Notes: generated by a model not told the origin, from the sequence alone. DNA of 64,000 nucleotides from an uncultured Tenacibaculum sp. (GCA_937922085.1 CAKZVD010000028.1:3542-67541); one strand, 5' to 3'. Counted from the stretch's first letter, positions 17,365 through 55,416 are shown. Made by a program: numbers and translations.

Positions 17365-17472
17365 TAACGAGTAACAAAATATTTATTTTCAAAAAAAAGC
17401 AAAAAAAATTAGGATATTCAATTTTTAAAATTGAATATTTGTACTCACGAAGTTCAATAACTTATTGATTAT

Positions 17473-17605
17473 GTTATCAAGAAAGGTGGAGGGATTAGAC
17501 CCTGTGAAGCCTTAGCAACCCTTTGTTCTATACAAAGAAGGTGCTAAATTCTACCAAAACATTATTTCAAAAACATTTTGAAATAATAAAAAAAGGATAG
17601 ATAAC
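17473..17605 (+). ncRNA. SAM-I type riboswitch upstream of metY
   Basis: gttatcaagaaaggtggagggattagaccctgtgaagccttagcaacc...aggtgctaaattc...gataac; P1 gttatc/gataac; lies before Met genes. Confidence 0.9.
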
Positions 17606-34811: not shown

Positions 34812-34927
34812 ACAAGGCTTTTTATCTTAAAAAGAAACTCTTTTGAAACGGTTTTATTTATTTTTACTGTAAATATAATGGGATAAACGCAATTGTGTTT
34901 ATCCTTACGTTGTAAACAATTGAAATT

Positions 34928-35407
34928 ATGAAATTGAAATTATTCTTTTTATTATCATTAGTCTTTAGTTTAAATATGCATAGTCAAGTTATTGAAGAAA
35001 ATGATACAACTTTCATCAAAGACTATTCTCTATTGAAATCAATCAAGGGAAAATGGAAAAATGTGCACAGTTGCATTGATAATATTGAAGTAGATTGTGA
35101 AAATTTTGAAAAATCATTAAAAAAACAATTAGAGTTAAAAAAAAGTGACACTCTAGGATTAAGAACTCAATTTAATATAATATGCAATAACATGAAAAGG
35201 CATATTATTACAATTACTGATAGTCTTATGATTAGCAGAAATGACACCACTACTTTATATCTAGACAATCAATTAAAAAAAGATATTATTTACACAAAGG
35301 GTATTCAAAATGAATACAAAATAAAAGTTATTAAAATTGATAAGGATTATTTTAGATTACACTCAACTGATAACTTATGGTTAGAATTAAAAAAAATAGA
35401 AGATTAA
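34928..35407 (+). CDS. Cassette gene: hypothetical exported protein
   Basis: Signal peptide; flanked by GTTGTAAAC (34909) and GTTTACAAC (35410). Confidence 0.75.
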   Translation: MKLKLFFLLSLVFSLNMHSQVIEENDTTFIKDYSLLKSIKGKWKNVHSCIDNIEVDCENFEKSLKKQLELKKSDTLGLRTQFNIICNNMKRHIITITDSLMISRNDTTTLYLDNQLKKDIIYTKGIQNEYKIKVIKIDKDYFRLHSTDNLWLELKKIED

Positions 35408-35409
35408 CA

Positions 35410-35547
35410 GTTTACAACAAAGCCTAAAAAACATTGCTTACCGATTTTACCACTTTGAAAAATCAATCGCAAAACCAAAATTCAGGTATATTTATAAACT
35501 AAACGCTAAAATAAACGCAACGATTTCTTAGTTGGAACGTTAGAATT
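35410..35547 (+). repeat. attC-like site, family A
   Basis: AAC-aaagc-CTAAAAAACATTGC...GCAACGATTTCTTAG-ttggaac-GTT; similar to 46319 and 50481. Confidence 0.7.
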
Positions 35548-35659
35548 AATATGAAGTAAACACCAAAATTGAACGTTTTACTAAACAGCAAGTATACTTT
35601 ACTCAATTTGAGTTTTTAAAAGTCAAATCTATAGTTATTTTTGAACTCAAATAAACGAA

Positions 35660-36268
35660 ATGAAAAATCACCTATTATTAATCGGATTCTTAATGTTTAT
35701 TGGGAAATTACTCTCTCAAGAAGTTAAAATTCCAAAGATTGAGTTTAAAAATAAAACGGAGGATTTAAATACCTATATAAATCTACTAAAGATAAAAGAC
35801 GAACAAGCTTTGATAATCAAAATAGGAAGTTCTAGTTATTGGTCTAAAGGACTATATTCCGATTTTCTTGTTTTTGAAAATGATGGAAATGTTTCTTTTT
35901 ATAAATGTTTTTTCCCATTTGATACTAATAAAAAACAGAAAATAAAGAAAGAACGAATTAGAAAATCGAAACGAAAACTTTATTGGAATTTCTTATCCAA
36001 TGCTAATCAAAATAATAGGTTTTCAATAGTAAAAAGTATGCTGAATATAAGATCAAAATCTAATGTAGATGGAACAAGTTCTATGATTTCAGTTTCTGAT
36101 GGACTTAATTACTCACTAGAAATTACTCAAGGAAATAAATATTCTGCATTTTCTACTTATTCCCCACACACCTTTATAAAAGAAAAATTTCCAGATTGGA
36201 AAGAACGGAAAAAATTAGTTGAATTAACAAAAGATATTTACGGTTTAATAGAAAAATACTATTGCTAA
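35660..36268 (+). CDS. Cassette gene: hypothetical exported protein
   Basis: Signal peptide; stop codon lies within ATTGCTAAC. Confidence 0.75.
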   Translation: MKNHLLLIGFLMFIGKLLSQEVKIPKIEFKNKTEDLNTYINLLKIKDEQALIIKIGSSSYWSKGLYSDFLVFENDGNVSFYKCFFPFDTNKKQKIKKERIRKSKRKLYWNFLSNANQNNRFSIVKSMLNIRSKSNVDGTSSMISVSDGLNYSLEITQGNKYSAFSTYSPHTFIKEKFPDWKERKKLVELTKDIYGLIEKYYC

Positions 36269-36273
36269 CAAAG

Positions 36274-36655
36274 GTAACCGTTGCACAACCCTATAATTTA
36301 ACAAAAAACAACTTTAAATACCCCTTTTTAAGAGGCTTGTTTTTTTAGTAATTATAAACAGTTTTTAATTTCGAGAGGCTTAAAAAGTAATATATAAAGC
36401 CTATGAACATCGATTTTATTAAAAACAATGTTCATAGGCTTTAGCCTTACTTTTTATGGTCTTTTTTGTGAATTTTAAATACTTTTTCAAATTATAGGCC
36501 ATAGCAGATACATGTATTACTTTATTTGCCTGTTTAATTCCTAATGTATTTATTTTTCGAAGTCCCATAAACTGGGTTAATGTGCCAAAAACAGGTTCTA
36601 CTGTACTTTGCCGTTTCCCTTTCATATAACAACCTTGTTTACTATGTACTCATTT
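36274..36655 (-). mobile_element. IS1182-family remnant (3' end plus transposase C-terminus)
   Basis: KRQSTVEPVFG...AMAYNLKK; terminus gtaaccgttgcacaac. Confidence 0.8.
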
Positions 36656-36916
36656 ATTTTAACTAAAAAAGTGAGTTAATTTTGTACACTTCTATAAAAG
36701 TTTTATTTGAAAAGTGTACAAAAATTTTATATTGAAAACATTGTGCTACTATTATTATTATTATTTTATAAATTTAAGCTCGAAAAAAGATTAAGAAATA
36801 AGTGATTAAACCTCCTATTCCTTTTTATTTTTAAAAATAAAATATAAACAACATAATGGAGATAAACACAATTGTGTTTAGCCCTTCGTTAGCAAAAATT
36901 TCAAATCACAGCTCAA

Positions 36917-37813
36917 ATGTCAATTATAATTGCTAAGATCGAAGATGACTCTTGTGTATTTAGATCAGATACAAAAGTTTCTATTTTAAATGGAGACGAC
37001 TCAGTTACTGGTGATAACAAGCTACGCTTAAATCCGAATGAGGGCGTTTTAAAAGTTCACATCATTCATCCAGCTATTTGTTTGGCTTTTGCAGGAACAG
37101 TAAACGTTTGTGTAAATATTATTTACGATTTATGCCGCAAACTACCATTAGAACTTAATGAAATATTAACTTTTCTACAAGAGAGCTTAATAGGATATGA
37201 TGATGATTCAGAATTTATCTTAGGTTCTTATTACTTTGAAAAATTAGAATTATATAAAATTGGAAATCAAGGAATAGAAAAAGGAAATTCATTTTGGATT
37301 GGAAATCAAGATGCATTCTCAGAATTCCAGTCATATTACAATAGTGATAATAGAAAAAAATCTTCAAATGACAGATTTCGTGAATCCTTTTATGATTTAA
37401 TTAGATTTTCAAAAATACCCACGATAGGAGACTTTATCATAAGTAGTTATTTTAGGAATAGTCATAAATGCTTTGTTTACAAAGAAGCTTTGATTTCAAA
37501 TAGTGGATATGGGATAATTAAAGCAAAAGCGAATGTACCAACTACTTTATCTGAAGGAACTGTTTTTGAAGGAGCGTTTACTGTTACTAATTTGGTTTCA
37601 GATAGAATTCTGAGACCAGCAGTATGTTTATATTTTCAAAAAGGGCAAATAGCTTATTTATATTTTCCGATTTCAAATTTAGTAAAATCAGCTATTCCGA
37701 TTGTTATAAAAAATATTACCCTAGAAAATCTAAAAGTGGAAGTACATAAACAATATGGAATTAACTTGATTGGATGGTCTTTGAATTTGGGTCACATAAA
37801 AATAGTTAAGTAA
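36917..37813 (+). CDS. Cassette gene: hypothetical, Ntn-hydrolase/proteasome-beta-like N-terminus
   Basis: M-SIIIA...SDTK...K...LAFAG pattern; flanked by GTTAGCAAAA and TTTTACTAAC. Confidence 0.6.
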   Translation: MSIIIAKIEDDSCVFRSDTKVSILNGDDSVTGDNKLRLNPNEGVLKVHIIHPAICLAFAGTVNVCVNIIYDLCRKLPLELNEILTFLQESLIGYDDDSEFILGSYYFEKLELYKIGNQGIEKGNSFWIGNQDAFSEFQSYYNSDNRKKSSNDRFRESFYDLIRFSKIPTIGDFIISSYFRNSHKCFVYKEALISNSGYGIIKAKANVPTTLSEGTVFEGAFTVTNLVSDRILRPAVCLYFQKGQIAYLYFPISNLVKSAIPIVIKNITLENLKVEVHKQYGINLIGWSLNLGHIKIVK

Positions 37814-37854
37814 ATTAATAACTTTATGAATAAAAAAAACTTTTACTAACACCT

Positions 37855-38496
37855 GTAACCGTTGCACAACCCCATAATTTCACAAAAAACAACTTTAAAT
37901 AAGCCTTTTCAAGAGGCTTGTTTTTTTAATAATCGTAAACTGTTTTTAATTTAGAGAGGCTTAGAAAGTAATATATAAAGCCTATGAACATCGATTTTAT
38001 TAAAAATAATGTATTTATGGCTTTAGCCTTACTTTTTATAATCTTTTTTGTGAATTTTAAATATTTTTCAAATTATAGGTCATAGCAGATATATACATCA
38101 CTTTATTTGCCTGCTTAATTCCAATGTGTTTATTTTTCGAAACCTCATAAACTGGATTAATATACCAAAAACAGGTTCTACTGTACTTTGCCGTTAGCCT
38201 TTCATATAACGACCTTGTTTACTATTTATTCGTTTATTATTGCGTTCATATTCTTCTCAGTAATAGGTAACACTAAACTTTTTCTCTTTTGCTGTTTCTT
38301 TATATAAAAAATCTAATTGAAGTATGTCTTTTAATCGTCTGTAAAAATTAGTTACGGGTACATGATCGCTTAAGCGAAAACTATTAAATAACTTCTCTTG
38401 GTATATTTTAACGCCTTGCATAAATAAAAATAAGAAACCTATTAAATCTCAACTCTATTCTAATCTTATTTTTTTGTTAACTTGTGCAACAGTCAC
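37855..38496 (-). mobile_element. Internally deleted IS1182-family element retaining both ends
   Basis: Ends gtaaccgttgcacaa and ttgtgcaacagtcac; transposase N-terminus (MQGVKIYQEKLF from 38421) joined to a frameshifted C-terminus. Confidence 0.8.
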
Positions 38497-38539
38497 ACTG
38501 TATAAAAAACATAGGGAGGGTTATGAGTTCGCACAGGCA

Positions 38540-38926
38540 CTCCAAATAAACAAAAATAATATTACCCAAAACCCCGAAATATATGCACAAAGATAAGCTC
38601 TTATGGAACATCCTTTTGGAACTATGAAAAAATGGGGATTTGATCATATTATGACAAAGAAAACTATAAAAAGGGCTTCTGCTGATGTTGGATTTATCTT
38701 CATTGCCTACAACTTGAAAAGAATCATGAATATCATTGGAATAGAAAAAATTAATAAAAATAATAGTTAGTTTTTCTATTCTTTTTACCCTCAAAAAGGC
38801 TTCTTACAAACATTTAAAATTAAAAACATATTGGTTTACATATATTTTCAATCAACCCCTAAATATTGTTATTATTCTTTTAAATCTGAAATATAAAAAA
38901 GTAAACGTGGGTTTTTAGACAAACTG
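38540..38926 (+). mobile_element. Second, divergent IS1182-family fragment
   Basis: Frameshifted EHPFGT...ADVGFIFIAYNLKRIMNI; probable end gtttttagacaaactg. Confidence 0.7.
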
Positions 38927-39034
38927 ACGTTGTAGCACATTTTGACCCATCTTAGTAAAAACTATTAGATTATGTTTATTTGATAAAGTGTAACACTTTA
39001 TCAAAAGTATTGTCTTTAGTAAAAACTAAACCAA

Positions 39035-40795
39035 ATGAATAATAAATTAGTATATGTACTATTCACAATCAGTATAGTATTATTTTCATGTTCTAACAAT
39101 CCAAAAACTAATTCGGCAATTATAACTGGAAAGGTCAATATCAACTGGTCAAAAACTATTAAATTAAGTAACGGAGCAATTACTCTTACAGATTCCTGGA
39201 TTGATCGAATTAACATAGGAGATTCCATCATTGACCTAAATACTGATGGTACGTTTAAAATAAAATTACCTCTAGAAAAATCTAACTTTTACAGCCTTTC
39301 TCACGAATCAAATGAAATCCAATTATTCCTTTCACCAAATGATTCTCTTCATATCGACTTTAACTCAGAAATCGTGTTTTCTGGCAAGGGTGGAAAACAA
39401 AATAATCATTTAAAATCTTTGAGAGATCAAATTAATTTAAATAGAAAATATATTAATGGAATTGATTTTTATACACAGTCATCTGATGCTGTAAATTCTA
39501 TTTTAGATTCTTTGGAGTTAGTTTATATGAATACACATAAAAAATTTAAAAAAAGTACTCCAGTAAATGAGATTTTTGAACAAAAAATAGTAGCAGATAT
39601 GGCCTATAGAAATAAACTCTATAAAATAAGTCATCCTTCAATATTTAAGAAAAACACGAATAAAAAGCTTCCTATAAAAAAGACTTATTATGAAGATATT
39701 GCTAAAGGAAGTTTTGATAATCCAGAATTATTAAAATCACTCGATTATATATTGTTTTTAGATAGTTATTTAGCTGCACAATCGGCTGGAGAATATAAAT
39801 ATGATATTTATTTTGAAGCTCCAATAGAAAAAATACATCCAAAATATAAAGAGATCCAAAAATTAGAAGCAGATCAAGAAATTAAAAATTATTTATTTAG
39901 TCAGCACCTTCATAAAAGTATGGACGATTACGGTGTTTCATATCTTGAAGACTTAATACCAAAATTTAGAGAAGATTGCAAAAATCCTTTGTTGGTAAAA
40001 CAAATTGAAGATCGTTTTCAAAAAGGTGTTGAGAGAAGAAAAGAAGCAAGTACAATCAAAATCTATAAAAAAATAGGAAATATTGAACTTGAGGCTCATA
40101 TTTTTTATCCTGAAAATTTTAAAGAAAGTGATCAAAGACCCGCTTACTTATTTTTTCATGGTGGTGGTTGGGCAATAGGAATGCCAGAATGGGGATACAA
40201 GAATTGCAAAAAATATAGTTCCAAAGGAATGGTTGCTATTTCGTTTGAGTATCGATTAGTTGATATCCATAATTCCAACATTCAAGATTGCGTTAGAGAT
40301 GCCAAATCTGCGATCTTATGGGTACGAAAACAAGCCAAATCATTAGGTGTAGATCCAAATAAACTTGTCGCAGCAGGATTTTCCGCTGGAGGACATCTGG
40401 CTGCATCTACGGCTATTTTAAAAGGGTATGAAGAAACAAATGATTCTGGAATAAGTTCTATACCAGACGCCATTGTTGTACATTCTGCATCATACAACAC
40501 ACTGAAAAACGAATGGTTTTCAAGGCAATCAGAACAAAACCCTAAATCTATTTCTACATTTCATCAACTAGATAAAAATCTTGTTCCTTCTATCTTTTTC
40601 CATGGAACCAATGATCATTTAGCCCCTATAAATGAGTTTACAGAGTTTAGAGACAAAATGGATGCTCTTGGCAATGATTATGAATATAAAATCTTTAAGA
40701 ATGTTGGTCATTTTTTTAATAACTCTGCAGCACGAAAAACTGTGGATGAAATGACAGAAGCTTTTTTTGTGAAATTAGGATATTTAGAAAAGTAA
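39035..40795 (+). CDS. Cassette gene: lipoprotein with C-terminal alpha/beta-hydrolase (esterase)
   Basis: Lipobox LFSC; HGGGW, GFSAGG, HGTND, GH. Confidence 0.85.
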   Translation: MNNKLVYVLFTISIVLFSCSNNPKTNSAIITGKVNINWSKTIKLSNGAITLTDSWIDRINIGDSIIDLNTDGTFKIKLPLEKSNFYSLSHESNEIQLFLSPNDSLHIDFNSEIVFSGKGGKQNNHLKSLRDQINLNRKYINGIDFYTQSSDAVNSILDSLELVYMNTHKKFKKSTPVNEIFEQKIVADMAYRNKLYKISHPSIFKKNTNKKLPIKKTYYEDIAKGSFDNPELLKSLDYILFLDSYLAAQSAGEYKYDIYFEAPIEKIHPKYKEIQKLEADQEIKNYLFSQHLHKSMDDYGVSYLEDLIPKFREDCKNPLLVKQIEDRFQKGVERRKEASTIKIYKKIGNIELEAHIFYPENFKESDQRPAYLFFHGGGWAIGMPEWGYKNCKKYSSKGMVAISFEYRLVDIHNSNIQDCVRDAKSAILWVRKQAKSLGVDPNKLVAAGFSAGGHLAASTAILKGYEETNDSGISSIPDAIVVHSASYNTLKNEWFSRQSEQNPKSISTFHQLDKNLVPSIFFHGTNDHLAPINEFTEFRDKMDALGNDYEYKIFKNVGHFFNNSAARKTVDEMTEAFFVKLGYLEK

Positions 40796-40823
40796 TGAAT
40801 TTAACTAACGTGCTAGAACAACG

Positions 40824-41295
40824 GTAGCCGTTACACAACCTTATAATTTCACAAAAAATTACTAAAAAATAAGCCTTTTTAAGAGGCTTATTTTTTAGTA
40901 ATTATAAACTGTTTTTAATTTAGAATTCCTTAAAAAGTAATATATAAAGCCTATGAACATCTATTTTATTAAAAACAATGTATTTATAGTCTTAGCCTTA
41001 CTTTTTATGGTCTTTTTTGTGAATTTTAAATACTTTTTCAAATTATAGGCCATAGCAGATACATGCATCACCTTAATCCCTAATGTATTTATTTTTCGAA
41101 GTCCCATAAACTGGGTTAATTTGCCAAAAACAGGTTCTATAGTACTTTGGCGTTTGCCTTTCATATAACGCTCTTGTTTGCTATGTACTTTTTCAGTAAG
41201 CTCTAATTATAAACTGGGTTAATGTGTCAAAAACGGGGTCTACAGTACTTTGGCGTTTGCCTTTCATATAACGCCCTTGTTTACTATGTACTCAT
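40824..41295 (-). mobile_element. IS1182-family remnant with internal tandem duplication
   Basis: KRQSTIEPVFG...AYNLKK; ~41107-41190 repeated at ~41210-41290. Confidence 0.8.
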
Positions 41296-41680
41296 TTATT
41301 TTAACTAAAAAAGAGAGTTAATTTTGTACACCTTTAAAAAAATAGTGATAACGAAGTGTACACTTTTATTTGAAAAGTATACAAAAATTTTAATAAAAAT
41401 ATAGACACATTATCCGTAGTTTGTTTTTTCAAAACATTAAAATAATATAACAAAGTGATACTATTGTATAAAAATTATATAATAAAAACATTGTGCCTCT
41501 ATTATTATTTTATAAATTTAAGCTCGAAAAAAAGATGAAGAAATAAGTGACTAAACCTCCTTTTTCCTTTTTATTTTCTAATATAAAAATTTTAAAACAA
41601 TATAAAAGGTACACTTTATACCATTATTTGGTTGTATAAATGTAATAGTACATTTATATAGTTGTTGTATGTTATTAGAA

Positions 41681-42133
41681 CTATCGTTTCGTCTTTCCTC
41701 TTTCCTGTATATTAGTTGGCCAAAAATCGTGTTCTTTATCTAAAAAAACTATATAATAGACATCATTTTCAACATATCCCGCAACAACTTCTTTACTATT
41801 TGGCTTTATATGAATTACAGCCCAATAAGATGGTTTAACATGTTTTGGCTCGTCAAAATTTGAACATAATGGAAAACCTATCTTAGTATATTGTTTTATT
41901 AACTGTTGCGCTAAAGCATCTGGTGCACTATATTGACTAATTTGTTTCAACCTTTCCATTAATGGACGTAACAGTTTGTAATCTTCCCATTCCTTGATAT
42001 CTTGTCCAAAAGAAACTATATGTTTTTCCCAACTAAAACTTATTTTCCTTTGCTTTGGGCCTTTTGCTTTTCTTTTACCTGGTTTGTTTTCATATTGTTT
42101 ATACCATTCTGTATCATAATTATTTTCACTCAT
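41681..42133 (-). CDS. Putative RelE-like (MAG6450-like) toxin/ribonuclease
   Basis: C-terminal VAGYVENDVYYIVFLDKEHDFWP; start overlaps the ATPase stop. Confidence 0.55.
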   Translation of the reverse strand: MSENNYDTEWYKQYENKPGKRKAKGPKQRKISFSWEKHIVSFGQDIKEWEDYKLLRPLMERLKQISQYSAPDALAQQLIKQYTKIGFPLCSNFDEPKHVKPSYWAVIHIKPNSKEVVAGYVENDVYYIVFLDKEHDFWPTNIQERGKTKR

Positions 42134-43349
42134 ACAAAAAAGATATAAGAGGTTCTACTATATTTATTGACTCAGCTCCACCAAAAGTACTTTCTAAATA
42201 TTTTTTTCTAAAATCAGAAGTGTTTTTTACTACCGAAGTATCGAAACTAGACATTGGATATAACTCTGAAACACCAAACTGGTCTTTATCAGTAAACCAT
42301 ATTTGATCTCTTCTAAATATATCTTTATCTAAAAGTGTCGCATCATGCGCCGTGAAAATGAATTGTGCGTTTTTTTTATTAAATCTATGAAAGAAAGAAA
42401 TAAGTTTTCTTGTTAGATTAGGATGGAACTTAGAGTCAAACTCGTCAATAAACAAGACCTTGCCATACTTAAGTGTATCATAAAGTGCTCCCAAAAAATA
42501 AATTAATTTTCTTGTTCCTTGACTCTCTTCTTTATCAATATCAAAAGGAACAGAATCTATAATAAAATCATTCTCATCATATTTATTGTGGTATGCCAAA
42601 AGCTTATTTTCATTAACTCCTGATTCTACTGAACTAATTTCTAAAAATTTAACTGCTAGAGAAAGCCAATTTTTAAAATTAGGATCTTCTCTTAATAAAA
42701 TAGAAGTAACATTAGAGAAATGTGTATTATCTAGTCCACTAATAATATTAGCATTTTCAAACCAATTAAATACTTGCTTTGATATCTGAGCATTATTCTG
42801 AGCTAAATAACTAAGGAAAAGAACGTTTTTATTAACCTGTGACTTATACTTATTACCTTCCTTAAAGCTTTTATGATTTATCTCAAATTTTGAATTTAAC
42901 CTACTAAAAAGTAAAGTTTCAGTATTAATTTTTCGATAAAGCCATTCTTTTACAATTATTTCACCTAAAATTTCAAAACCATATCTATAAAAAACTCCTT
43001 GCTCAAAAAAAGAAATTTCAAAAAAAGAAGGTTTATTTTCAGTCTCTTGACTTAACTTAAAGTAAAAATCATTCCTTTTTTTATCCTCTTTTTTCTTAAG
43101 TGAATTAGCAAAAGAATTATGAACTAAGTCTTCCATAAAACCAAAAGCTGAAATAAAATTACTTTTACCTCCTCCATTACTACCATAGACAGCTACGGAT
43201 TTCATTAAATTTATATTCTCATTTAGATCAACCAAATTATCATCTAAATGTTCTTTATATGATTTTACAGAAGACATTAAAAGTTTGTTCTCATTTTTAT
43301 ATGAGAGGAAATTTTTAAATTTAAAATCTATTAGCATTTTAAAATACAT
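42126..43349 (-). CDS. AAA_21/RloA-like ABC-type ATPase (start may be 43337)
   Basis: YGSNGGGKS, ESQGT, FIDEFDSKFHP, FTAH, RRDQIWF. Confidence 0.9.
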   Translation of the reverse strand: MYFKMLIDFKFKNFLSYKNENKLLMSSVKSYKEHLDDNLVDLNENINLMKSVAVYGSNGGGKSNFISAFGFMEDLVHNSFANSLKKKEDKKRNDFYFKLSQETENKPSFFEISFFEQGVFYRYGFEILGEIIVKEWLYRKINTETLLFSRLNSKFEINHKSFKEGNKYKSQVNKNVLFLSYLAQNNAQISKQVFNWFENANIISGLDNTHFSNVTSILLREDPNFKNWLSLAVKFLEISSVESGVNENKLLAYHNKYDENDFIIDSVPFDIDKEESQGTRKLIYFLGALYDTLKYGKVLFIDEFDSKFHPNLTRKLISFFHRFNKKNAQFIFTAHDATLLDKDIFRRDQIWFTDKDQFGVSELYPMSSFDTSVVKNTSDFRKKYLESTFGGAESINIVEPLISFLYE

Positions 43350-43356
43350 TTAGTTG

Positions 43357-43364
43357 CAAAAATA
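43357..43364 (-). promoter_or_regulatory. Bacteroidetes -7 element for the inverted cassette
   Basis: TATTTTTG (TAnnTTTG) just upstream of the ATPase start. Confidence 0.55.
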
Positions 43365-43411
43365 CAACAAAAAACACATATTCTGCCAAATAATGGAAGA
43401 AATAAAAAAAC

Positions 43412-43611
43412 AACATACAACAATCTATAAAAAACATAGAGCGGTTTAGGCTTGCCAAAAGGTCACTATTTATTTATAAAGTCGCCAAATATAAAATTTG
43501 GCATTTTCAACAAAAAAGATAAAAGCAAAATATTATATTTGACTAAGTATTAAACTCGAAATGTAGTGCTTATCCTCTGCCCTACGTGTTTTATACTAAA
43601 CGTTAGCTATA
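43412..43611 (+). repeat. attC-like site, family B (~200 bp)
   Basis: AAC-aatc-TATAAAAAACATAGAGCGG...CTGCCCTACGTGTTTTATA-ctaaac-GTT. Confidence 0.7.
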
Positions 43612-43619
43612 ATTAAAAA

Positions 43620-43907
43620 ATGAACACAATATTCTCTACACTGATGATGTCATCTTGGGTTTTAGGAATAATTTTAGTTTTAACATCTAATCCTGTTCGA
43701 ATTATATCTAAGGTTAAAGATTTTGATACAAACATAAATAAACCTTTTTATGGTTTTAAACATATTAGAAAAGCTATTTCTTTAACTTCAGATAATGCGA
43801 TTATTGAAAAATTGAAAAAGAAAATATTAATAAGAAAAATAGGATATTCTTTTTTGATAATAACTCCTGTTTTATTCATTCTTGGGGGAATATTTGATCG
43901 CCAATAA
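43620..43907 (+). CDS. Small 2-TM hypothetical protein
   Basis: 95 aa ORF just after core GTTAGCTATA. Confidence 0.65.
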   Translation: MNTIFSTLMMSSWVLGIILVLTSNPVRIISKVKDFDTNINKPFYGFKHIRKAISLTSDNAIIEKLKKKILIRKIGYSFLIITPVLFILGGIFDRQ

Positions 43908-44029
43908 AAAAGTTATATAAATCTGAATAATGTTCTATTGAAATAATTATAATTGAAAAACTGACCTGAATTTGAATTACTACTTTAATAAATAATAATT
44001 TTATTGTAGCTGAAAAATAATTTATTGTA

Positions 44030-44470
44030 ATGAAAGAGTTAATAGATTTAATAGCTCAAAAACACAGAGTAGATGGAATAAAAATAAATCCTTGCGCCTC
44101 TAACTTTGATATAACTGAATTTGAAAACAAAGTTGGATTTAATTTACCTCAAAATTTTAGAGAATTCTATCTTACCTGTAATGGATTTAGCTGTGAAGAA
44201 GATATTTTTAATATAATGTCTCTTTCAGAAATAACAGACCGATGGGAAAATTATAATGATAATTGGTTTTACTTTTCAGAATATATGATTTATTCAGATA
44301 TGTGGGGCATTAGGATTACTGAAACTGGAGAATATGAAATATTTAATGGAAGTTATCCTAAAAAAACAATTACATCCTCTCTTGAAGAGTTTTTAAAAAG
44401 GTTCTTCAAAGGAAATGTGTTTGACAACGGAGGACTTTATGATTGGCACGAAGAACTTAAAATAAAATAA
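44030..44470 (+). CDS. SMI1/KNR4 family (immunity-type) protein
   Basis: PCASNFDITEFENKVGFNLPQNFREFYLTCNG; SLEEFL. Confidence 0.85.
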   Translation: MKELIDLIAQKHRVDGIKINPCASNFDITEFENKVGFNLPQNFREFYLTCNGFSCEEDIFNIMSLSEITDRWENYNDNWFYFSEYMIYSDMWGIRITETGEYEIFNGSYPKKTITSSLEEFLKRFFKGNVFDNGGLYDWHEELKIK

Positions 44471-44471
44471 C

Positions 44472-44669
44472 TATAGCTAAGACTATATAAAAAGCATAGG
44501 ACGGTTAAGTGTTGTATTGAAAATGTTTTGTTTTTTTGCTGGGTTGTCAAATATAAAATTTGCATTTAAACTAAAATTAAAAACAAAATATTTATATTTA
44601 GCTAAGTGTTAAATCCGAAGTATAGTGCTTATCAACTGCCTTACTTTTTATATACTAAACATTAACTAC
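44472..44669 (+). repeat. attC-like site, family B (degenerate ends)
   Basis: Shares caaatataaaattt, caaaatatt..atattt.ctaagt and tagtgcttatc..ctgcc with 43412. Confidence 0.7.
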
Positions 44670-44679
44670 AATAAAACTC

Positions 44680-45504
44680 ATGATTCCGAAAATTAGTAAG
44701 TTCTACTATTATTTTTATTCAGAAAACCCTCACGCTCTAATACAGTTAATTGGTGATGCAACTGAGTACCATTCAGACTACTCTATTTCAAAGTCAAAGC
44801 AAGAAATGTTTCAAAAGCATCAGTTGTATTGTCAATTATTAAACACAATCGAATTTACACTTGAAAGTTACGGTTACATTAATTTTTTCTCAGAATACGA
44901 AGACTTAGTAGGTGAATTGCCATCTCTTTGTGAATTACTTGAAGAATTTGGGCATTTAGATGTAGTAGAAAACATAAATCAAGCAACGAATTTTTATGAA
45001 AAATATTCGAATCAATTTGAATCTTTACAAAACACGTCGTTGGAACATGATGAAATAGATGCTATTTACGACAAGTTAGATTCAAATTTTGATTCAAAAT
45101 TTGACCTAAATGAACCTATGCTACATCTTTCTAAACAAATAAAAAACACCCCTAATAATTTTTGTTTGGATGAGAACGGTAAGTCTTTTGAAATGGAATT
45201 TACTGGACAACTAGAAACCTTCTATGCGAATAAAAATCTTCAAAAAAGATACTCATTTCATAAAGGTGAAGTACACGGTGAGTGTTTTGAATTCGATTTT
45301 GATGGAAATAAAGAAAGCCTATACTTTTATAAAAATGAACACTCTTACGAACAACTAAAACAATGGTATAAAAATGGCAACTTAAAATATGAAAAATATG
45401 CAGATGATGTTTATAAATATTGGCATGAAAATGGACAACTCCGTATAGAAAGAAATGGAGAAGTTTTTCAAAAGTGGGATAAAAATGGAAAAAAAATAAA
45501 GTAG
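44680..45504 (+). CDS. DUF4375-like domain plus MORN-variant (YwqK-like) repeats
   Basis: WYKNGNLK, WHENGQLR, WDKNGK repeats. Confidence 0.65.
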   Translation: MIPKISKFYYYFYSENPHALIQLIGDATEYHSDYSISKSKQEMFQKHQLYCQLLNTIEFTLESYGYINFFSEYEDLVGELPSLCELLEEFGHLDVVENINQATNFYEKYSNQFESLQNTSLEHDEIDAIYDKLDSNFDSKFDLNEPMLHLSKQIKNTPNNFCLDENGKSFEMEFTGQLETFYANKNLQKRYSFHKGEVHGECFEFDFDGNKESLYFYKNEHSYEQLKQWYKNGNLKYEKYADDVYKYWHENGQLRIERNGEVFQKWDKNGKKIK

Positions 45505-45556
45505 TTAACACTATGTAAAAAAACATTGAAACGCATTTTACATTAACCGTTGTACT
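45501..45556 (+). repeat. Short attC-like site (56 bp)
   Basis: AAC-act-ATGTAAAA...TTTTACAT-taacc-GTT. Confidence 0.7.
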
Positions 45557-45561
45557 CAATT

Positions 45562-46335
45562 ATGAAAAACCCTTTTTGGAAGATAAAATCTATACTAATA
45601 TTATTATTTATACCGTTTTCCATATTTCTTATATTTATTTCAATTTTACTGATTTTATTTAATGAAAAGGATGGATATCTAGTGAGCTTATTATTAACCT
45701 CATTAGGAATAATATTATTTATTTACTCATTAAGATATGTGATAAAAACCAACAAATCTTTCAAAAATGATTTAATAGTTTTCCTGAATGATGATTCAAG
45801 GTTAATAGAGTTATTTAACTATGAGAAAACAGAATGGAACGTTTTTGCTGAAATTTATTACAAAAAAAGAATCAAGAATTATAAGATAATAATGTTTATT
45901 TTAATTCCTATAATAACATCTTTTATGATTCTTATTTATAAAGAAGATTATAGATTATTTATCTTGTTATCTTTTTTGTTCCTTTCAATATTTACTTTTG
46001 TTTTTCTATTCCTAAGAAAATCTCTAATAGAATTTAAATCTAAACTGTTTGACTTTGAGAACCCTGAGGCTAGAGTAACCACGTCAGGAATTCTAATTAA
46101 CAAGAACTATGTAGTATCCTATAATAATCAGGATGGGTTACTAACAAAATGTACATTCGTAGTATTTATAAATATAAAATGTTTTGAATTTACGATTAGA
46201 AGGGCAAGCGGAAAAGGACATACCTACCAATACTTTAATCTATTGATACCAAAAGAAAGAGAGCACGATTCTATAATGATAGAAAGTAGGATAAATGAAT
46301 ATGCTGTGCCAAAAACTAAGTACAACAAAACCTAA
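45562..46335 (+). CDS. Cassette gene: 4-TM membrane protein
   Basis: Flanked by GTTGTACT and AGTACAAC. Confidence 0.75.
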   Translation: MKNPFWKIKSILILLFIPFSIFLIFISILLILFNEKDGYLVSLLLTSLGIILFIYSLRYVIKTNKSFKNDLIVFLNDDSRLIELFNYEKTEWNVFAEIYYKKRIKNYKIIMFILIPIITSFMILIYKEDYRLFILLSFLFLSIFTFVFLFLRKSLIEFKSKLFDFENPEARVTTSGILINKNYVVSYNNQDGLLTKCTFVVFINIKCFEFTIRRASGKGHTYQYFNLLIPKEREHDSIMIESRINEYAVPKTKYNKT

Positions 46336-46453
46336 AAACATTGCTGGCGGATTTCCCCCTTGGAAAAATATTCGCAAAGTTCCAATGTTCAGGTATTTTT
46401 ACTAAATTAACAACTAAACTAATGCAACGTTTTTTAGCTAAAACGTTAACGAT
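46319..46453 (+). repeat. attC-like site, family A
   Basis: AAC-aaaac-CTAAAAACATTGC...GCAACGTTTTTTAG-ctaaaac-GTT. Confidence 0.75.
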
Positions 46454-46463
46454 CATATAAAAG

Positions 46464-46808
46464 ATGAAAAGATTTAAAACCGAAAAGATGATCCACTTTA
46501 TCTACCAGATGCTTATGTACATGGGTGATGTGACTAGAGACAATATTGTTTCTTTTATGCATGGCGCTGATTTCGGTAAATGGAATGAGTCACATTGGAC
46601 GAAATTGCTAAATGAATTTATCGTAATCAAATATAAAATTGAAGAACGAGCAATGGGTTGACCTTATCAAGTTGAGTTATTAAGTAAACGGGAAGGAATT
46701 GAATGGAATGAAGGTTTTAAGAAACTAATGCTTGAAATGATTAGTAAATCTGAGCAAATACCATTTACTAAGAAAATGCAGAACTGGATTAACGATTTAG
46801 AGAACTGA
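46464..46808 (+). pseudogene. Hypothetical gene interrupted by an in-frame TGA
   Basis: ...RAMG*PYQVELLSKREGIEW...; frame stays open for 48 more codons. Confidence 0.6.
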
Positions 46809-46907
46809 AAATTAAATACGATGTTTAATTCAATTTGTATAATTGAAAAATGGTGAATTACGAATTTAAATTCATTGAAAATAACGATGAATTAACTTGA
46901 TGAAACA

Positions 46908-47135
46908 ATGAGTAGATCGAAACAGAAAACTAAAATTCACGGAAATACAACGGCTAAATCTGAAAAAGAAAACAAGCAAAACGCAAATAGAAAATTTAGA
47001 CGAATTGTTAAACAAAAAGTAAAACTGAATAAAGAGAGTTTACCCGAACTAAGGGAAGTCTCAAATGTTTGGTGTTTTGATAAGGATGGGAAAAGATATA
47101 ATTTGGAAATGACTGAAAAAGATCTTCGAAAATGA
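46908..47135 (+). CDS. Small basic hypothetical protein
   Basis: 75 aa: MSRSKQKT...SEKENKQNANRKFRR...SNVWCFDKDGK. Confidence 0.65.
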   Translation: MSRSKQKTKIHGNTTAKSEKENKQNANRKFRRIVKQKVKLNKESLPELREVSNVWCFDKDGKRYNLEMTEKDLRK

Positions 47136-47140
47136 AACTA

Positions 47141-47299
47141 TACGCTAACACTATATATGTGATGAATCGATTGGTTCGTGTATATTAGGTAAGGTACAAT
47201 GCTTACAGATATAAAGTTAACAAACTTTATATCTGTAAATTATTAGCTAAATTTAGAACTTAAATACGTAACTAATCTTATATAAACACGGTTATAGAC
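47141..47299 (+). repeat. attC-like site with long internal hairpin
   Basis: AAC-acta-TATATGTGAT...ATCTTATATA-aacacg-GTT; internal ttacagatataaagtt/aactttatatctgtaa. Confidence 0.65.
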
Positions 47300-47312
47300 G
47301 ATTAGAACTGAA

Positions 47313-47477
47313 ATGTATTTTAGAAACAAAAGAAACATTTATGGAGTAGATATTGGAACCCCTTTAATATATGCAGGTAATCAACCCCAAAGGCTAATTC
47401 CTTATAATTATTCCGGATTAAAAAGTTTTGAAAAAAAATGTTCTTATAAATATGTTTGTACCAATAACTTGAAATAA
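47313..47477 (+). CDS. 54-aa ORF or decayed gene in a ~290 bp cassette
   Basis: MYFRNKRNIYGVDIGTPLIYAG... between GTTATAG (47291) and CTGTAAC (47571). Confidence 0.35.
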   Translation: MYFRNKRNIYGVDIGTPLIYAGNQPQRLIPYNYSGLKSFEKKCSYKYVCTNNLK

Positions 47478-47570
47478 AAAACAACAAAATTTTACAACTA
47501 TGATAACGGAATAAAACACTTGATAAAAGAAATAAAAACTAAAAGGATAATTAAATACTATTAAAAGAGA

Positions 47571-47625
47571 CTGTAACAATATATAAACTGTATTAAAATG
47601 ACAGTTTAAACAAAACGTTATATCT
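47571..47625 (+). repeat. Short attC-like site (55 bp)
   Basis: AAC-aatata-TAAACTGT...ACAGTTTA-aacaaaac-GTT. Confidence 0.65.
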
Positions 47626-47649
47626 GATTAACGAAAAATCAAGATTGAT

Positions 47650-48372
47650 ATGAATAAAGAATTAGAACTATTGCAATCAGAGATAAATAATAATTGTGAT
47701 GAATTACGTAAAATAGATATCAATAAAATAAATATTATAGCTGATTTTGGCAACGAATCTCATATTGAATTAAAGAACAAAGACAGAGGGTGTAGAATTT
47801 ACCCTTTTTATTTTAGCGAAACTCCAATATATGAGTTCGAATGGGATGACTGTCTTATTTTTCAAACATCAAGAGATGATATTAAAAAACAGGTTGAAAT
47901 AATAAAAAGTTGGATATTAAAGAGAACAATGCCATCAGAGGTACAAATTCAGTTTCCTGAAATAAAACTGAACAAATTGGCAAAATACTATGAGAAGGGA
48001 GAGGGAGTAAAAGGCGAATTCATCGAGAGCTGGAATGAAATTGAAGAAAATAACTATAATTATTTATCTGTCGATCCCGAAGAGTATCATACCAGTAAAG
48101 ACACAATTAGATTAATCAAAGAAATGAGGGAGGAAGGGCTTAATGAATCATTAAGAATAGGTTCTCGATTATCTTGGTTAATTTTATCTCGAGCTAGAAG
48201 ACACATTATAAATGATAACACTCCGCATGTAGGTATATATTTCTTTGGGAATAATCAAATGAAAATATATTCTAATTTGAGTGATGAAACTGAAGAATTT
48301 GAGGTGGAAGTAAAATATGAAGAGCATCTCGAAAGATTTGTAAAAGAATTATTAAAAGAAGAGATAAAATAG
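47650..48372 (+). CDS. Cassette gene: hypothetical acidic protein
   Basis: 240 aa ORF after GTTATATCT. Confidence 0.7.
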   Translation: MNKELELLQSEINNNCDELRKIDINKINIIADFGNESHIELKNKDRGCRIYPFYFSETPIYEFEWDDCLIFQTSRDDIKKQVEIIKSWILKRTMPSEVQIQFPEIKLNKLAKYYEKGEGVKGEFIESWNEIEENNYNYLSVDPEEYHTSKDTIRLIKEMREEGLNESLRIGSRLSWLILSRARRHIINDNTPHVGIYFFGNNQMKIYSNLSDETEEFEVEVKYEEHLERFVKELLKEEIK

Positions 48373-48689
48373 ATAAAAAGGCCATTTTAATCAATTGTAG
48401 AGTTGTGCAACAGCCACAATAACTATAAGTAATGCGGAATTTTGGTGTTATCCGAAGGTAGAAGTGTAAATTAAAGCCTGAAAAAACCTTACTTAGAGTC
48501 TTTATCGTCAAGGATAAAAAAATTAAAATATTTATGTTAGTACCAATCCGAAGTGTATCATTTATCCTAAGTTTTTTTAGATGAAAACAAAAAATAAAAT
48601 ACTATTTTGTTTTTAACAACTAATGAGCAATATTCAAAAGAATAGTGTATAAATTTAACTTTGATTTTAATAATTGATATAAATAAAAA

Positions 48690-49139
48690 ATGAGCTTAGA
48701 AATTGATTTTATGTACCAACCAGAAGTAAGCTTTGATAAAATATATTCTATTGACCTTGGTTTAAATGGATTCAAATTTGATTCTAGAAAAGGATTTGAT
48801 TTAATTTCTACTGGTATTGCTGTAGATGAAATATATGATGAATCTAGATTAATATTTCAACTAGAAAGAGAACTTAAATTAAAATTAACCATCATAAATG
48901 CATGGGAATCTAAAATGTATAATGATTTTATTCCAATAACTGAACTACTACAATCATTAGAATTATTTAAAAGTTCAATACTTAAGAATCCTACTTTTTA
49001 TAAAAATATTGATTATATATGGATAGAATACCCTGACTATTTAAAAATTCAACTATTGAAAGATTTAGAATATTTAATAAGACTGCATAAATACCTATTA
49101 AGTATTCAAATTAAGGAAGTAAAACTAGAAGTAAATTAA
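48690..49139 (+). CDS. Hypothetical protein
   Basis: 149 aa ORF, same orientation as the array. Confidence 0.65.
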   Translation: MSLEIDFMYQPEVSFDKIYSIDLGLNGFKFDSRKGFDLISTGIAVDEIYDESRLIFQLERELKLKLTIINAWESKMYNDFIPITELLQSLELFKSSILKNPTFYKNIDYIWIEYPDYLKIQLLKDLEYLIRLHKYLLSIQIKEVKLEVN

Positions 49140-49276
49140 AATGGTTAAAACAGAATGTATCATCAATTGTTTTTAAAGTATTTTAATTAATTTAGGTATG
49201 ATAAAACACGCAAAAAAACATACAAAACATAAAAACGTGACTAATAATTTAAATTAAACTTGTGTATTTTTACTTC

Positions 49277-49852
49277 ATGAAAAACATCTTCTATTTCTTT
49301 AGTATACTTTTAACTTTTAGTCAACTTAAAGCGCAAGTATCTGTAATAACAAATCAGTTTAGTTCAAACCTAACAAAAAAGGATTTAAATTTTTCAAGTG
49401 ATAGAAAACTGTTTGCTGTAGGGGTAAATGATAAACTTACAGAAAATTATATAGTTGTTTCTAAAAATAAGCGCGGTGCTGAAAATGATATACTCTGTAT
49501 TGATAAATTTACTAGAAAAGGAGACGAGAAATTTATTAAAACATTTACTACTCGTTTTATACATAAAACAAACCTAAGTATTTCTTTTGTTCAAAACAGA
49601 ATGATGTACAAAGACATTGATAAAGATGGAAATATGGAGTTTATTTATATAGTTAAAGAACAAGAAGACGGAATGAAAAGCCCGTTAAATAAAGTTACCG
49701 GACTTATTGTGTATAAAAATAAAGGATATAAATTATGGGTTAATGCTTCAGAAAAATTTGAAACTACACATTTTGACAAAAATTTTAAAGACCTTCCTGA
49801 AAATATTAGTTCCGAATTTTTAACCTTTTGGAATAGTCTCAGAAAAAAATAG
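49277..49852 (+). CDS. Hypothetical exported protein
   Basis: Signal peptide; DIDKDG (Ca-binding-like) motif. Confidence 0.65.
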   Translation: MKNIFYFFSILLTFSQLKAQVSVITNQFSSNLTKKDLNFSSDRKLFAVGVNDKLTENYIVVSKNKRGAENDILCIDKFTRKGDEKFIKTFTTRFIHKTNLSISFVQNRMMYKDIDKDGNMEFIYIVKEQEDGMKSPLNKVTGLIVYKNKGYKLWVNASEKFETTHFDKNFKDLPENISSEFLTFWNSLRKK

Positions 49853-49926
49853 TTTAGTTTGTTAAAAACCATATTAATTAGTTGTTGTATTCGAAATATT
49901 TAACATTGTAAAAAAATTAAAAAAAG

Positions 49927-50499
49927 ATGAAAAAGAAAACTCACTTAAAAATAATATTCACATTATTTATTAGTAATTTTTTGACTGCTCAACATACAGA
50001 AAAATTTAAAAAATTGATTTCTAATTTAAAACTTATTGATACAATAAAAATCAATAAAAAATATAAAAACGGGAATCAAAAAGAGATAGGGAACTATAGC
50101 GTTTATGAATTAAATGATTTTGAGTATGAACAACTTTCTGGAAAACATATTACATATTATAGCAATGGACAAATATTGGAAGAAACTACTTACGATAACT
50201 TTGGGATTGTCTTAAAATGGAAATTGTATGATGGACTAGGTAATTTACAACAAGAACTTAAAACAATAAAAATTGATACAGATAAAGAAAGTTTAGATGA
50301 ACTCTTAAATGATAACAATTCTATTGATATAATAATTGAAGAAAAAAAGTATAAATTTTCAGATAAAATATGTGGTTGGTTTTTAATTAAAGAAGGGCAA
50401 AAAATTAATGGTAAAAAAATTGGGAAATGGAAAAAATATTATCCTAATGGAGAAGTCAAAAAAGTAAAAGAATATAAAGCTTTATACAATAAAACCTAA
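49927..50499 (+). CDS. Exported MORN-variant repeat protein
   Basis: YKNGNQK, YYSNGQI, GKWKKYYPNGEVK. Confidence 0.7.
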   Translation: MKKKTHLKIIFTLFISNFLTAQHTEKFKKLISNLKLIDTIKINKKYKNGNQKEIGNYSVYELNDFEYEQLSGKHITYYSNGQILEETTYDNFGIVLKWKLYDGLGNLQQELKTIKIDTDKESLDELLNDNNSIDIIIEEKKYKFSDKICGWFLIKEGQKINGKKIGKWKKYYPNGEVKKVKEYKALYNKT

Positions 50500-50634
50500 A
50501 AAAATATAGTTTATGGGGCATTTGGAAAATCTTCAAAGAATTCAAATGTTTAGGTGTATTTATAAATTAAAAGCAAAGATTAATAATATGTATAAATCAC
50601 ATTTACTAAGTGTTTAATCGAATATTATTAGTTT

Positions 50635-54977: not shown

Positions 54978-55302
54978 GAAACAAAAAAAGTATATTAACA
55001 ATACACTTAAAAATGAACTATTATTAATTTGTTTTTTTAACTTCTAGAGCTACATTCATTGAATTGTATACTTATTTAACCTTATCTGTTTGATTGAGTT
55101 TGTATCTCATTTATAAATGGGAAAGGAGAATTTAAACAGAATTAATAAATTTACACTCTGTATAATTTTAGTTATTTAGTTGGAATTTAAAGTTTAATAC
55201 AAGAGATAATTGATATTATAAAAGAAAAAAATAAAATTTAACAGTAATTTTAAAAAGGTAACTGTTATATTTACCACCAAATTAGTTCATTAATTTATTG
55301 AT

Positions 55303-55416
55303 GTTATCAAGAAAGGTGGAGGGATTAGACCCTGCGAAACCTTAGCAACCCTTTGTGTAAACAAAGAAGGTGCTACATTCTACTGGTATGTGTTAAAACA
55401 TATGCAGAGAGATAAC
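55303..55416 (+). ncRNA. SAM-I type riboswitch upstream of metH
   Basis: Near-identical 5' core to the 17473 copy; P1 gttatc/gataac. Confidence 0.9.

Follow-up and report, generated by a model that had tools for sequence, protein, structure and literature searches.

A predicted AarT:AAA toxin-antitoxin pair in an antisense, integron-like cassette of an uncultured Tenacibaculum sp.

The cassette and the surrounding array

The window, the whole stretch of DNA analysed here, comprises 64,000 nucleotides from an uncultured Tenacibaculum sp. (GCA_937922085.1 CAKZVD010000028.1:3542-67541), and all positions are counted from its first letter. At 41664-43421 it holds a cassette unit whose two genes, one for an ATPase (42126-43337, minus strand) and one for a 150-aa protein (41681-42133, minus strand), are antisense to the rest of an array at ~34.9-50.5 kb. 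The array is AT-rich and made up of small genes with attC-like repeats between them and three transposase remnants. The unit has core/inverse-core-like complementary ends, with a GTT-type core on the left (41664-41673, plus strand) and an AAC-type inverse core on the right (43412-43421, plus strand), which are reverse complements at 10/10 positions and at 12/12 with the flanking bases. Attached to these ends, as in an integron cassette, are attC-like sites: on the left boundary, a short site of imperfect inverted repeats (41596-41666, plus strand), attC-like by pattern, and an intergenic repeat of family D7 at the right boundary (43419-43604, plus strand) with the polarity of its paralogue at ~44480-44663. 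The spacer around the right-boundary repeat (43369-43670) occurs at extremely high copy in marine metagenome contigs.

The original prediction had singled out this unit as the only antisense cassette, with perfect ends. Among 14 cassette-sized units (in one of which a plus-strand ORF extends past the unit's edge), only 41664-43421 has an antisense long ORF, transposase remnants aside, and the perfect ends were likewise confirmed. Neither feature proved special. The ends of the ten other hand-called cassettes of the array are complementary at 9, 8, 9, 9, 9, 8, 9, 6, 7 and 4 of 10 positions; cassettes here generally have complementary ends, so that 10/10 marks the upper limit of the usual range. 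Homologous loci take the same bounded form, as 15 of 69 reach ends of 9-10/10, compared with ~3% of cross-locus pairs. When a simple orientation rule was applied to the 16 homologous loci whose ends match at 8/10 or more, 13 were called sense, one inverted (L002) and two ambiguous; the rule called the window cassette itself ambiguous, and some 8/10 pairs may be due to chance (14% across loci). A near relative, L005, looks inverted by eye. With 13 of 16 end-bounded homologues called sense, inversion was rejected as a family trait.

No integron integrase scored above the cut-off in the genome (68% complete), where the best of six TIGR02249 matches reached 80 bits against 265. Minimum-energy folds of the attC-like sites of the array were weak, and their two ends were mostly unpaired. 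For these two reasons the array is called integron-like by pattern only. In a possible source run, 41640-43498 lay on one unbroken contig, which is not independent evidence, and the contig comparison found no joint excising the cassette 41664-43421.

Several other features were observed in and around the array. Its ~14 cassettes (34909-50500) have GTT/AAC ends that complement each other and are separated by attC-like spacers of diverse kinds; those at 44030-44470, 44680-45504 and 49927-50499 encode one SMI1/KNR4 (SUKH) immunity-type protein and two MORN-repeat proteins. The three transposase remnants (36270-36850, 37851-38928 and 40820-41595, with a DDE_Tnp_1_6 piece) are related and presumably of the IS1182 type. 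Each starts directly after a cassette AAC end, which suggests that these sites are the target of an insertion sequence. Next to the cassette ends of the homologous loci L005 (downstream of 2337), L002 and L033 there are reverse-transcriptase genes or group II intron-like sequence; attC-targeting introns have a comparable placement at cassette ends. Elsewhere in the window, near-identical repeats of 56 nt and 35 nt (D12 and D15) lie upstream of sulfur/methionine genes at 17471-17554 and 55301-55383, and we take them to resemble SAM riboswitches.

The ATPase

The full ATPase ORF spans 42126-43349 on the minus strand (407 aa) and overlaps the ORF of the 150-aa protein by 8 nt. Homologues begin at the Met at 43337, giving 403 aa from the likely start. 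The protein matched Pfam AAA_21 at 5.8e-34 (119 bits, cut-off 27) and its best PADLOC match was AbiLi at 1.4e-77, so that both the overlapping genes and the AAA_21, RloA-type ATPase of the original prediction were borne out. It was annotated as an RloA/AbiLi-type, Rad50-like ABC ATPase and predicted antitoxin/sensor. By fold it is nearest to Rad50 and PtuA, with an identity to PtuA of 12-14%.

In the window ATPase the residues of Walker A, the signature, Walker B and the H-loop are intact; those of the first three motifs do not vary in 72/72 toxin-paired homologous ATPases. ATPases of the Bacteroidota subclade have a length of ~403 aa, versus 430-460 in other subclades. A quick tree (70 of 90 rows kept after thinning) placed the ATPases paired with AarT, the toxin family to which the small protein is assigned below, on one side of a branch and those paired with RloB on the other (52 vs 18 rows, SH-aLRT 93). 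Within one subclade (L011, L012 and L015-L022) the H-loop His is replaced, by Gln in 9/72, and the Walker motifs are kept.

Fold and family of the small protein

The structure model of the 150-aa protein had a pLDDT of 82. In a VIA fold search against 48,161 chains, the top 11 matches were of the RelE superfamily, a few of them by our own assignment; the best reached Z 7.7 (rmsd 2.6, 85/89 residues aligned), and a VIA Z below 8 may reflect a merely common arrangement. The top Foldseek matches were YafQ, HigB and YoeB, with a best E of 0.016. Both searches thus ranked RelE, YoeB, HigB and YafQ first, with modest scores and a uniform ranking, and the predicted structure has the mRNA-interferase (RelE-superfamily) fold at that level of support. 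RNase chemistry may be expected from this fold.

The partner had originally been likened by eye to MAG6450 and RelE-fold proteins. The RelE fold was recovered by both fold searches; the likeness to MAG6450 is present and falls below the family cut-off, as the match to NCBIfam MAG6450 (NF046006) had 17.1 bits (E 0.006) against a cut-off of 40 bits. Weak MAG6450 matches were found in 59/62 homologues (E <=0.05, best 2.2e-6), and the protein appears by sequence to be related to this family and, by the cut-off, not a member. Searches of its sequence against PDB, Pfam and PADLOC returned nothing informative, and neither did PHROGs, where the best match (E 0.012) was a family of unknown function. 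An RloB partner was considered and rejected, as originally foreseen: the protein has no RloB/TOPRIM match in Pfam or PADLOC, true RloB partners score 148 bits, and the fold ranking is that of RelE.

The protein had 65 database matches, one of them its own entry, and clustering at 50% gave 289 representatives. Among 121 toxin-family sequences, conservation reaches at least 90% at Tyr82, Trp104, Asp132 and His135, which are candidate catalytic residues. Five family members (P0124, P0145, P0161, P0167 and P0191) are ~200-215 aa long and have the RelE-like core interrupted midway by a long insertion.

Conservation of the pair and link to a published family

In the best 80 of 95 toxin loci, the ATPase lies directly upstream of the toxin in 74/80 and Panacea in 3/80, and the remaining 3/80 are cut by a contig end, which agrees with the expectation of a conserved gene pair. 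An additional 91 loci, picked with a Panacea-leaning query and including one duplicate, gave 66 ATPase, 19 Panacea, 5 truncated and 1 other neighbour. Because the 150-aa family also pairs with Panacea, a known antitoxin domain, it was placed on the toxin side of the pair.

Ernits et al. (2023) validated the Acinetobacter guerrae pair AarT(D3):AAA(D29), in which the ATPase neutralises the toxin (PMC10440598). The A. guerrae AarT has an mRNA-interferase fold and inhibits translation (PMC10440598). Dataset S1 of the same paper lists Chitinophaga barathri WP_120514118.1 as the D3 toxin of a D29:D3 pair, lists a Panacea:D3 pair in Bacteroides uniformis, and counts single pairs for Galbibacter marinus and Ureibacillus massiliensis (PMC10440598). 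WP_120514118.1 is the toxin of our locus L017, and the window toxin is 51% identical to it over 128 aa. Directly upstream, the window ATPase is 54% identical (402 aa) to the C. barathri L017 D29 partner; a look-up of the L017 ATPase returned RPD42838.1 and WP_206614323.1, versus the listed WP_120514119.1. The window pair therefore has a toxin homologous to a listed D3 protein and an adjacent, overlapping D29 AAA_21 ATPase. The link to the A. guerrae AarT itself runs through the listed C. barathri member.

Two claims of the original prediction fall at this point. The pair is not a candidate new module, because NetFlax D29:D3 already includes a pair with 51% and 54% identity to it, and an antitoxin gene is not missing, because in the validated AarT:AAA member this role belongs to the ATPase (PMC10440598). 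We consider it likely that the cassette, which looks intact, truly belongs to the published AarT:AAA family and works like AbiL and PARIS with a RelE-fold effector. The small protein was annotated accordingly as an AarT (NetFlax D3)-family predicted toxin of RelE-superfamily fold.

The toxin is patchily distributed, with 0/60 relatives and 2/400 genomes of the phylum carrying it. It was also found on 68 plasmid records, and both of those inspected carry ATPase and toxin. One Bacteroides phage carries it with Panacea. On viral contigs it is paired with another AAA_21 subfamily: L210 (1225-2971, and also L209 and L211) encodes a D3-like toxin with a different tail and a more distant AAA_21 ATPase, between antiterminator-like and lysozyme-like genes in a typical prophage cargo slot. 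In two genomes (L020, 2966-6804; L072, 1-5363) an AarT:ATPase pair adjoins a canonical RloA-RloB pair.

Promoter and candidate operator

A TAnnTTTG element lies at 43357-43364 on the minus strand, 19 nt before the likely ATPase start, and is the predicted promoter of the pair. In Flavobacterium this motif serves as the sigma-A -7 box (PMC9723704). The promoter type, together with the nearest relatives, makes a Flavobacteriales host probable. The 8-mer is common in the window, with 32 plus-strand and 57 minus-strand matches (89). In 51/69 homologous loci it occurs no more than 60 nt from the ATPase start, compared with a shuffle mean of 3.8 and maximum of 9; 5 of 74 loci had been dropped from this count for having no upstream DNA or no start. 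Because the position is conserved among homologous loci, the window element is credible as a promoter, and the view of the cassette as self-promoted gained support.

A 17-bp dyad at 43383-43399 (6-N5-6, 5/6 pairs) ends 18 nt upstream of the -7 box and is a candidate operator. A 6-N5-6 inverted repeat with at least 5/6 pairs, 2 of them G-C, was noticed post hoc in the 80 nt upstream of 29/70 toxin-paired ATPases, the window included, and of 24/51 after thinning. Controls were lower, with a shuffle mean of 3.6 (maximum 9), 28/368 promoters of the genome and, for even spacers, at most 5. In most Bacteroidota cases 16-19 nt separate the end of the dyad from the -7 box, and the two arms covary from clade to clade. 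A dyad was also found in 6/17 RloB-paired operons, and TTG-N11-CAA starting in the box was present in 8/10 RloB-paired operons with an exact -7 box, versus 6/354 control promoters. Panacea-paired operons had the dyad in 4/18, with no contrast between odd and even spacers. The dyad thus follows the ATPase, in both AarT-ATPase and RloAB operons, and the ATPase may itself bind it. Pfam and NCBIfam profiles detected no helix-turn-helix family in either the ATPase or the 150-aa protein. A host regulon for the dyad was unsupported, as the 7 other degenerate matches in the genome, at least one of them inside a coding gene, had no common context.

Predicted docking tail

Prediction of the ATPase-toxin complex gave a score of 0.76, versus 0.01 for the best of three controls. 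The mark for this score is reached by 116/157 solved complexes and 2/215 mismatched pairs, counts that are rough here because the alignments were self-supplied. The runs agreed in at least 92% of contacts, with a partner pLDDT of at least 80. No close solved complex was found by sequence, and by fold the top matches had 11-18% identity. The model supports binding of the toxin tail to the ATPase and does not show it. In the predicted interface, toxin residues 6-27, a basic N-terminal tail encoded at 42053-42118 (minus strand), dock on ATPase residues 20-27, 136-140, 344 and 360-389, and the RelE core is left free. Neither the docking tail nor the promoter dyad was found described in the literature searched; the SI Appendix of Ernits et al., outside that scope, may show interface models.

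A free core could also be read the other way, as in the ATPase-gated RNase of the original prediction, with the ATPase activating or loading the nuclease rather than inhibiting it and the small protein harmless alone. This would fit PARIS, in which defence needs contact between ATPase and effector and AriB alone is mildly toxic (PMC11464382). We nevertheless regard it as very unlikely, given that toxicity-neutralisation assays confirmed D3:D29 with the ATPase in the antitoxin role (PMC10440598), and that the toxin family also pairs with Panacea, without an ATPase.

Tail motifs differ with the antitoxin. Among 64 toxins thinned at 75% (157/165 placeable), with patterns written after viewing the sequences, an aromatic/Leu-x-Arg or RKR motif was present in 39 of 47 ATPase-paired tails and an SLLxG-type motif in 2, while the 17 Panacea-paired tails had SLLxG in 14 and the aromatic/Leu-x-Arg or RKR motif in 1. 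No repeated tail swaps were found, since the Panacea-paired toxins form one branch (96*) and yield just one independent pair (sign test p 1). Because of this single branch and the post hoc patterns, the difference is treated as one evolutionary event and not as a statistical result.

In the model, toxin position 16 contacts Asp344 of the ATPase, which is invariant in 72/72 AarT-paired and 18/18 RloB-paired ATPases. Position 16 is Asn in the window toxin and Arg in at least 90% of its close homologues; the window toxin also departs from the family at two other conserved positions, with Ile39 for Asp and Phe42 for Gln. These substitutions raise the prospect that the window copy is decaying, with an altered docking motif, a weak or inactive toxin and a cassette that is only a passenger; the degenerate dyad (5/6) and the transposase remnant adjoining the cassette could be taken in the same sense. 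But both frames are open and coupled, the promoter is intact, and the window copy keeps all 17 invariant columns of the 62-row toxin alignment. The end branches are also not long (0.41 vs a median of 0.32, and 0.32 vs 0.24), and decay is in our judgement improbable.

Proposed mechanism and role

The best overall explanation is, with good confidence, that of a two-gene, self-promoted AarT(D3):AAA(D29) unit, in which the Rad50-like ABC ATPase is the likely antitoxin and would hold a translation-blocking toxin by its tail. The ATPase is predicted to bind the basic N-terminal tail by direct docking, likely keeping the RelE-fold toxin inactive, and the freed toxin would block translation. By analogy with PARIS and AbiL, the ATPase could sense a phage product or a nucleotide change and then release the toxin. 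This anti-phage trigger is the weakest step of the mechanism, and we rate the chances of an anti-phage role, which is plausible and which the original prediction put as abortive infection, as about even.

A defence role is plausibly favoured by kinship with AbiL, PARIS and Septu together with the mobile contexts. It is disfavoured because the published screen of A. guerrae AarT:AAA in E. coli against the BASEL coliphages reported no defence (PMC10440598), and because a plausible defence neighbour was present in only 8/40 homologous loci (150/155 neighbour genes scanned, hits judged by reading, uncontrolled). For neighbouring genes in the window PADLOC gave only weak matches, the best at 4e-5.

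The same negative screen and weak defence-island signal speak for a rival in which the pair is an addiction module that stabilises the array or small plasmids through the death of cells that lose it, with the ATPase as a constitutive antitoxin and no phage trigger. The pair is the main cargo of two small plasmids, and toxin-antitoxin cassettes of arrays are usually self-promoted and lethal when the cassette is lost (PMC13108822). Still, an ATPase of 400 aa with catalytic motifs invariant in 72/72 would be costly where a 160-aa Panacea serves the toxin family elsewhere, and its closest characterised relatives, AbiLi, AriA and PtuA, are phage-defence components. Addiction without a phage trigger is on balance a possible but less likely account. 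Under the preferred reading of an ATPase that holds and releases the toxin, the cassette probably also resists its own loss, by analogy with other array toxin-antitoxin cassettes.

A wider proposition, which we put forward as doubtful, is that RloA/AbiLi-type ABC ATPases are plug-in immune platforms for interchangeable nucleases (RelE-fold AarT and TOPRIM RloB), each held by a basic N-terminal tag beside the invariant RRDQ Asp. The ATPase dimer would repress its own promoter at the 17-bp dyad without a helix-turn-helix, and a phage signal would both free the toxin and derepress the operon.

As a discovery the cassette has little weight, because the family is already published. Its value is as a handle on how ATPases of the AarT, AbiL and RloAB type hold and release nucleases. 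A 2026 review lists the mechanism of AbiL as unknown (PMC13064643), and Ernits et al. could not model the ATPase-toxin interface, with weak AlphaFold2 interfaces at a pDockQ of 0.24-0.35 (PMC10440598). The tail interface, the antitoxin-dependent tail motif and the promoter dyad are three specific, testable leads, and the presence of homologues on small plasmids of enterobacteria hints at a reason for running the earlier screen again, this time with a native pair.

Comparison with known systems

The window pair has the same gene order as AarT(D3):AAA(D29) of A. guerrae, ATPase then toxin, and an mRNA-interferase-like fold is common to both; it differs in its shorter, Bacteroidota-subclade ATPase and its antisense placement in an attC-like cassette. 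With AbiL/RloAB it has in common an ATPase whose best PADLOC match is AbiLi, the RRDQ and catalytic motifs and a similar promoter dyad, and RloB partners also have basic N-terminal tails by eye. In contrast to these systems, the window partner has a RelE fold and no RloB/TOPRIM domain, and the ATPases lie on the other side of the tree branch. PARIS (AriA/AriB) and Septu (PtuA/PtuB) likewise combine an AAA_21 ABC ATPase with a nuclease effector, and PtuA is among the nearest folds, but their effectors are TOPRIM or HNH proteins, unlike the RelE-fold protein of the window. AriB of PARIS binds AriA through arginines in its N-terminus and is set free in response to a phage protein (PMC11464382). 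Panacea:D3 (PanAT) has the toxin family of the window (profile match of 100% probability), with Panacea as the antitoxin and a different tail motif.
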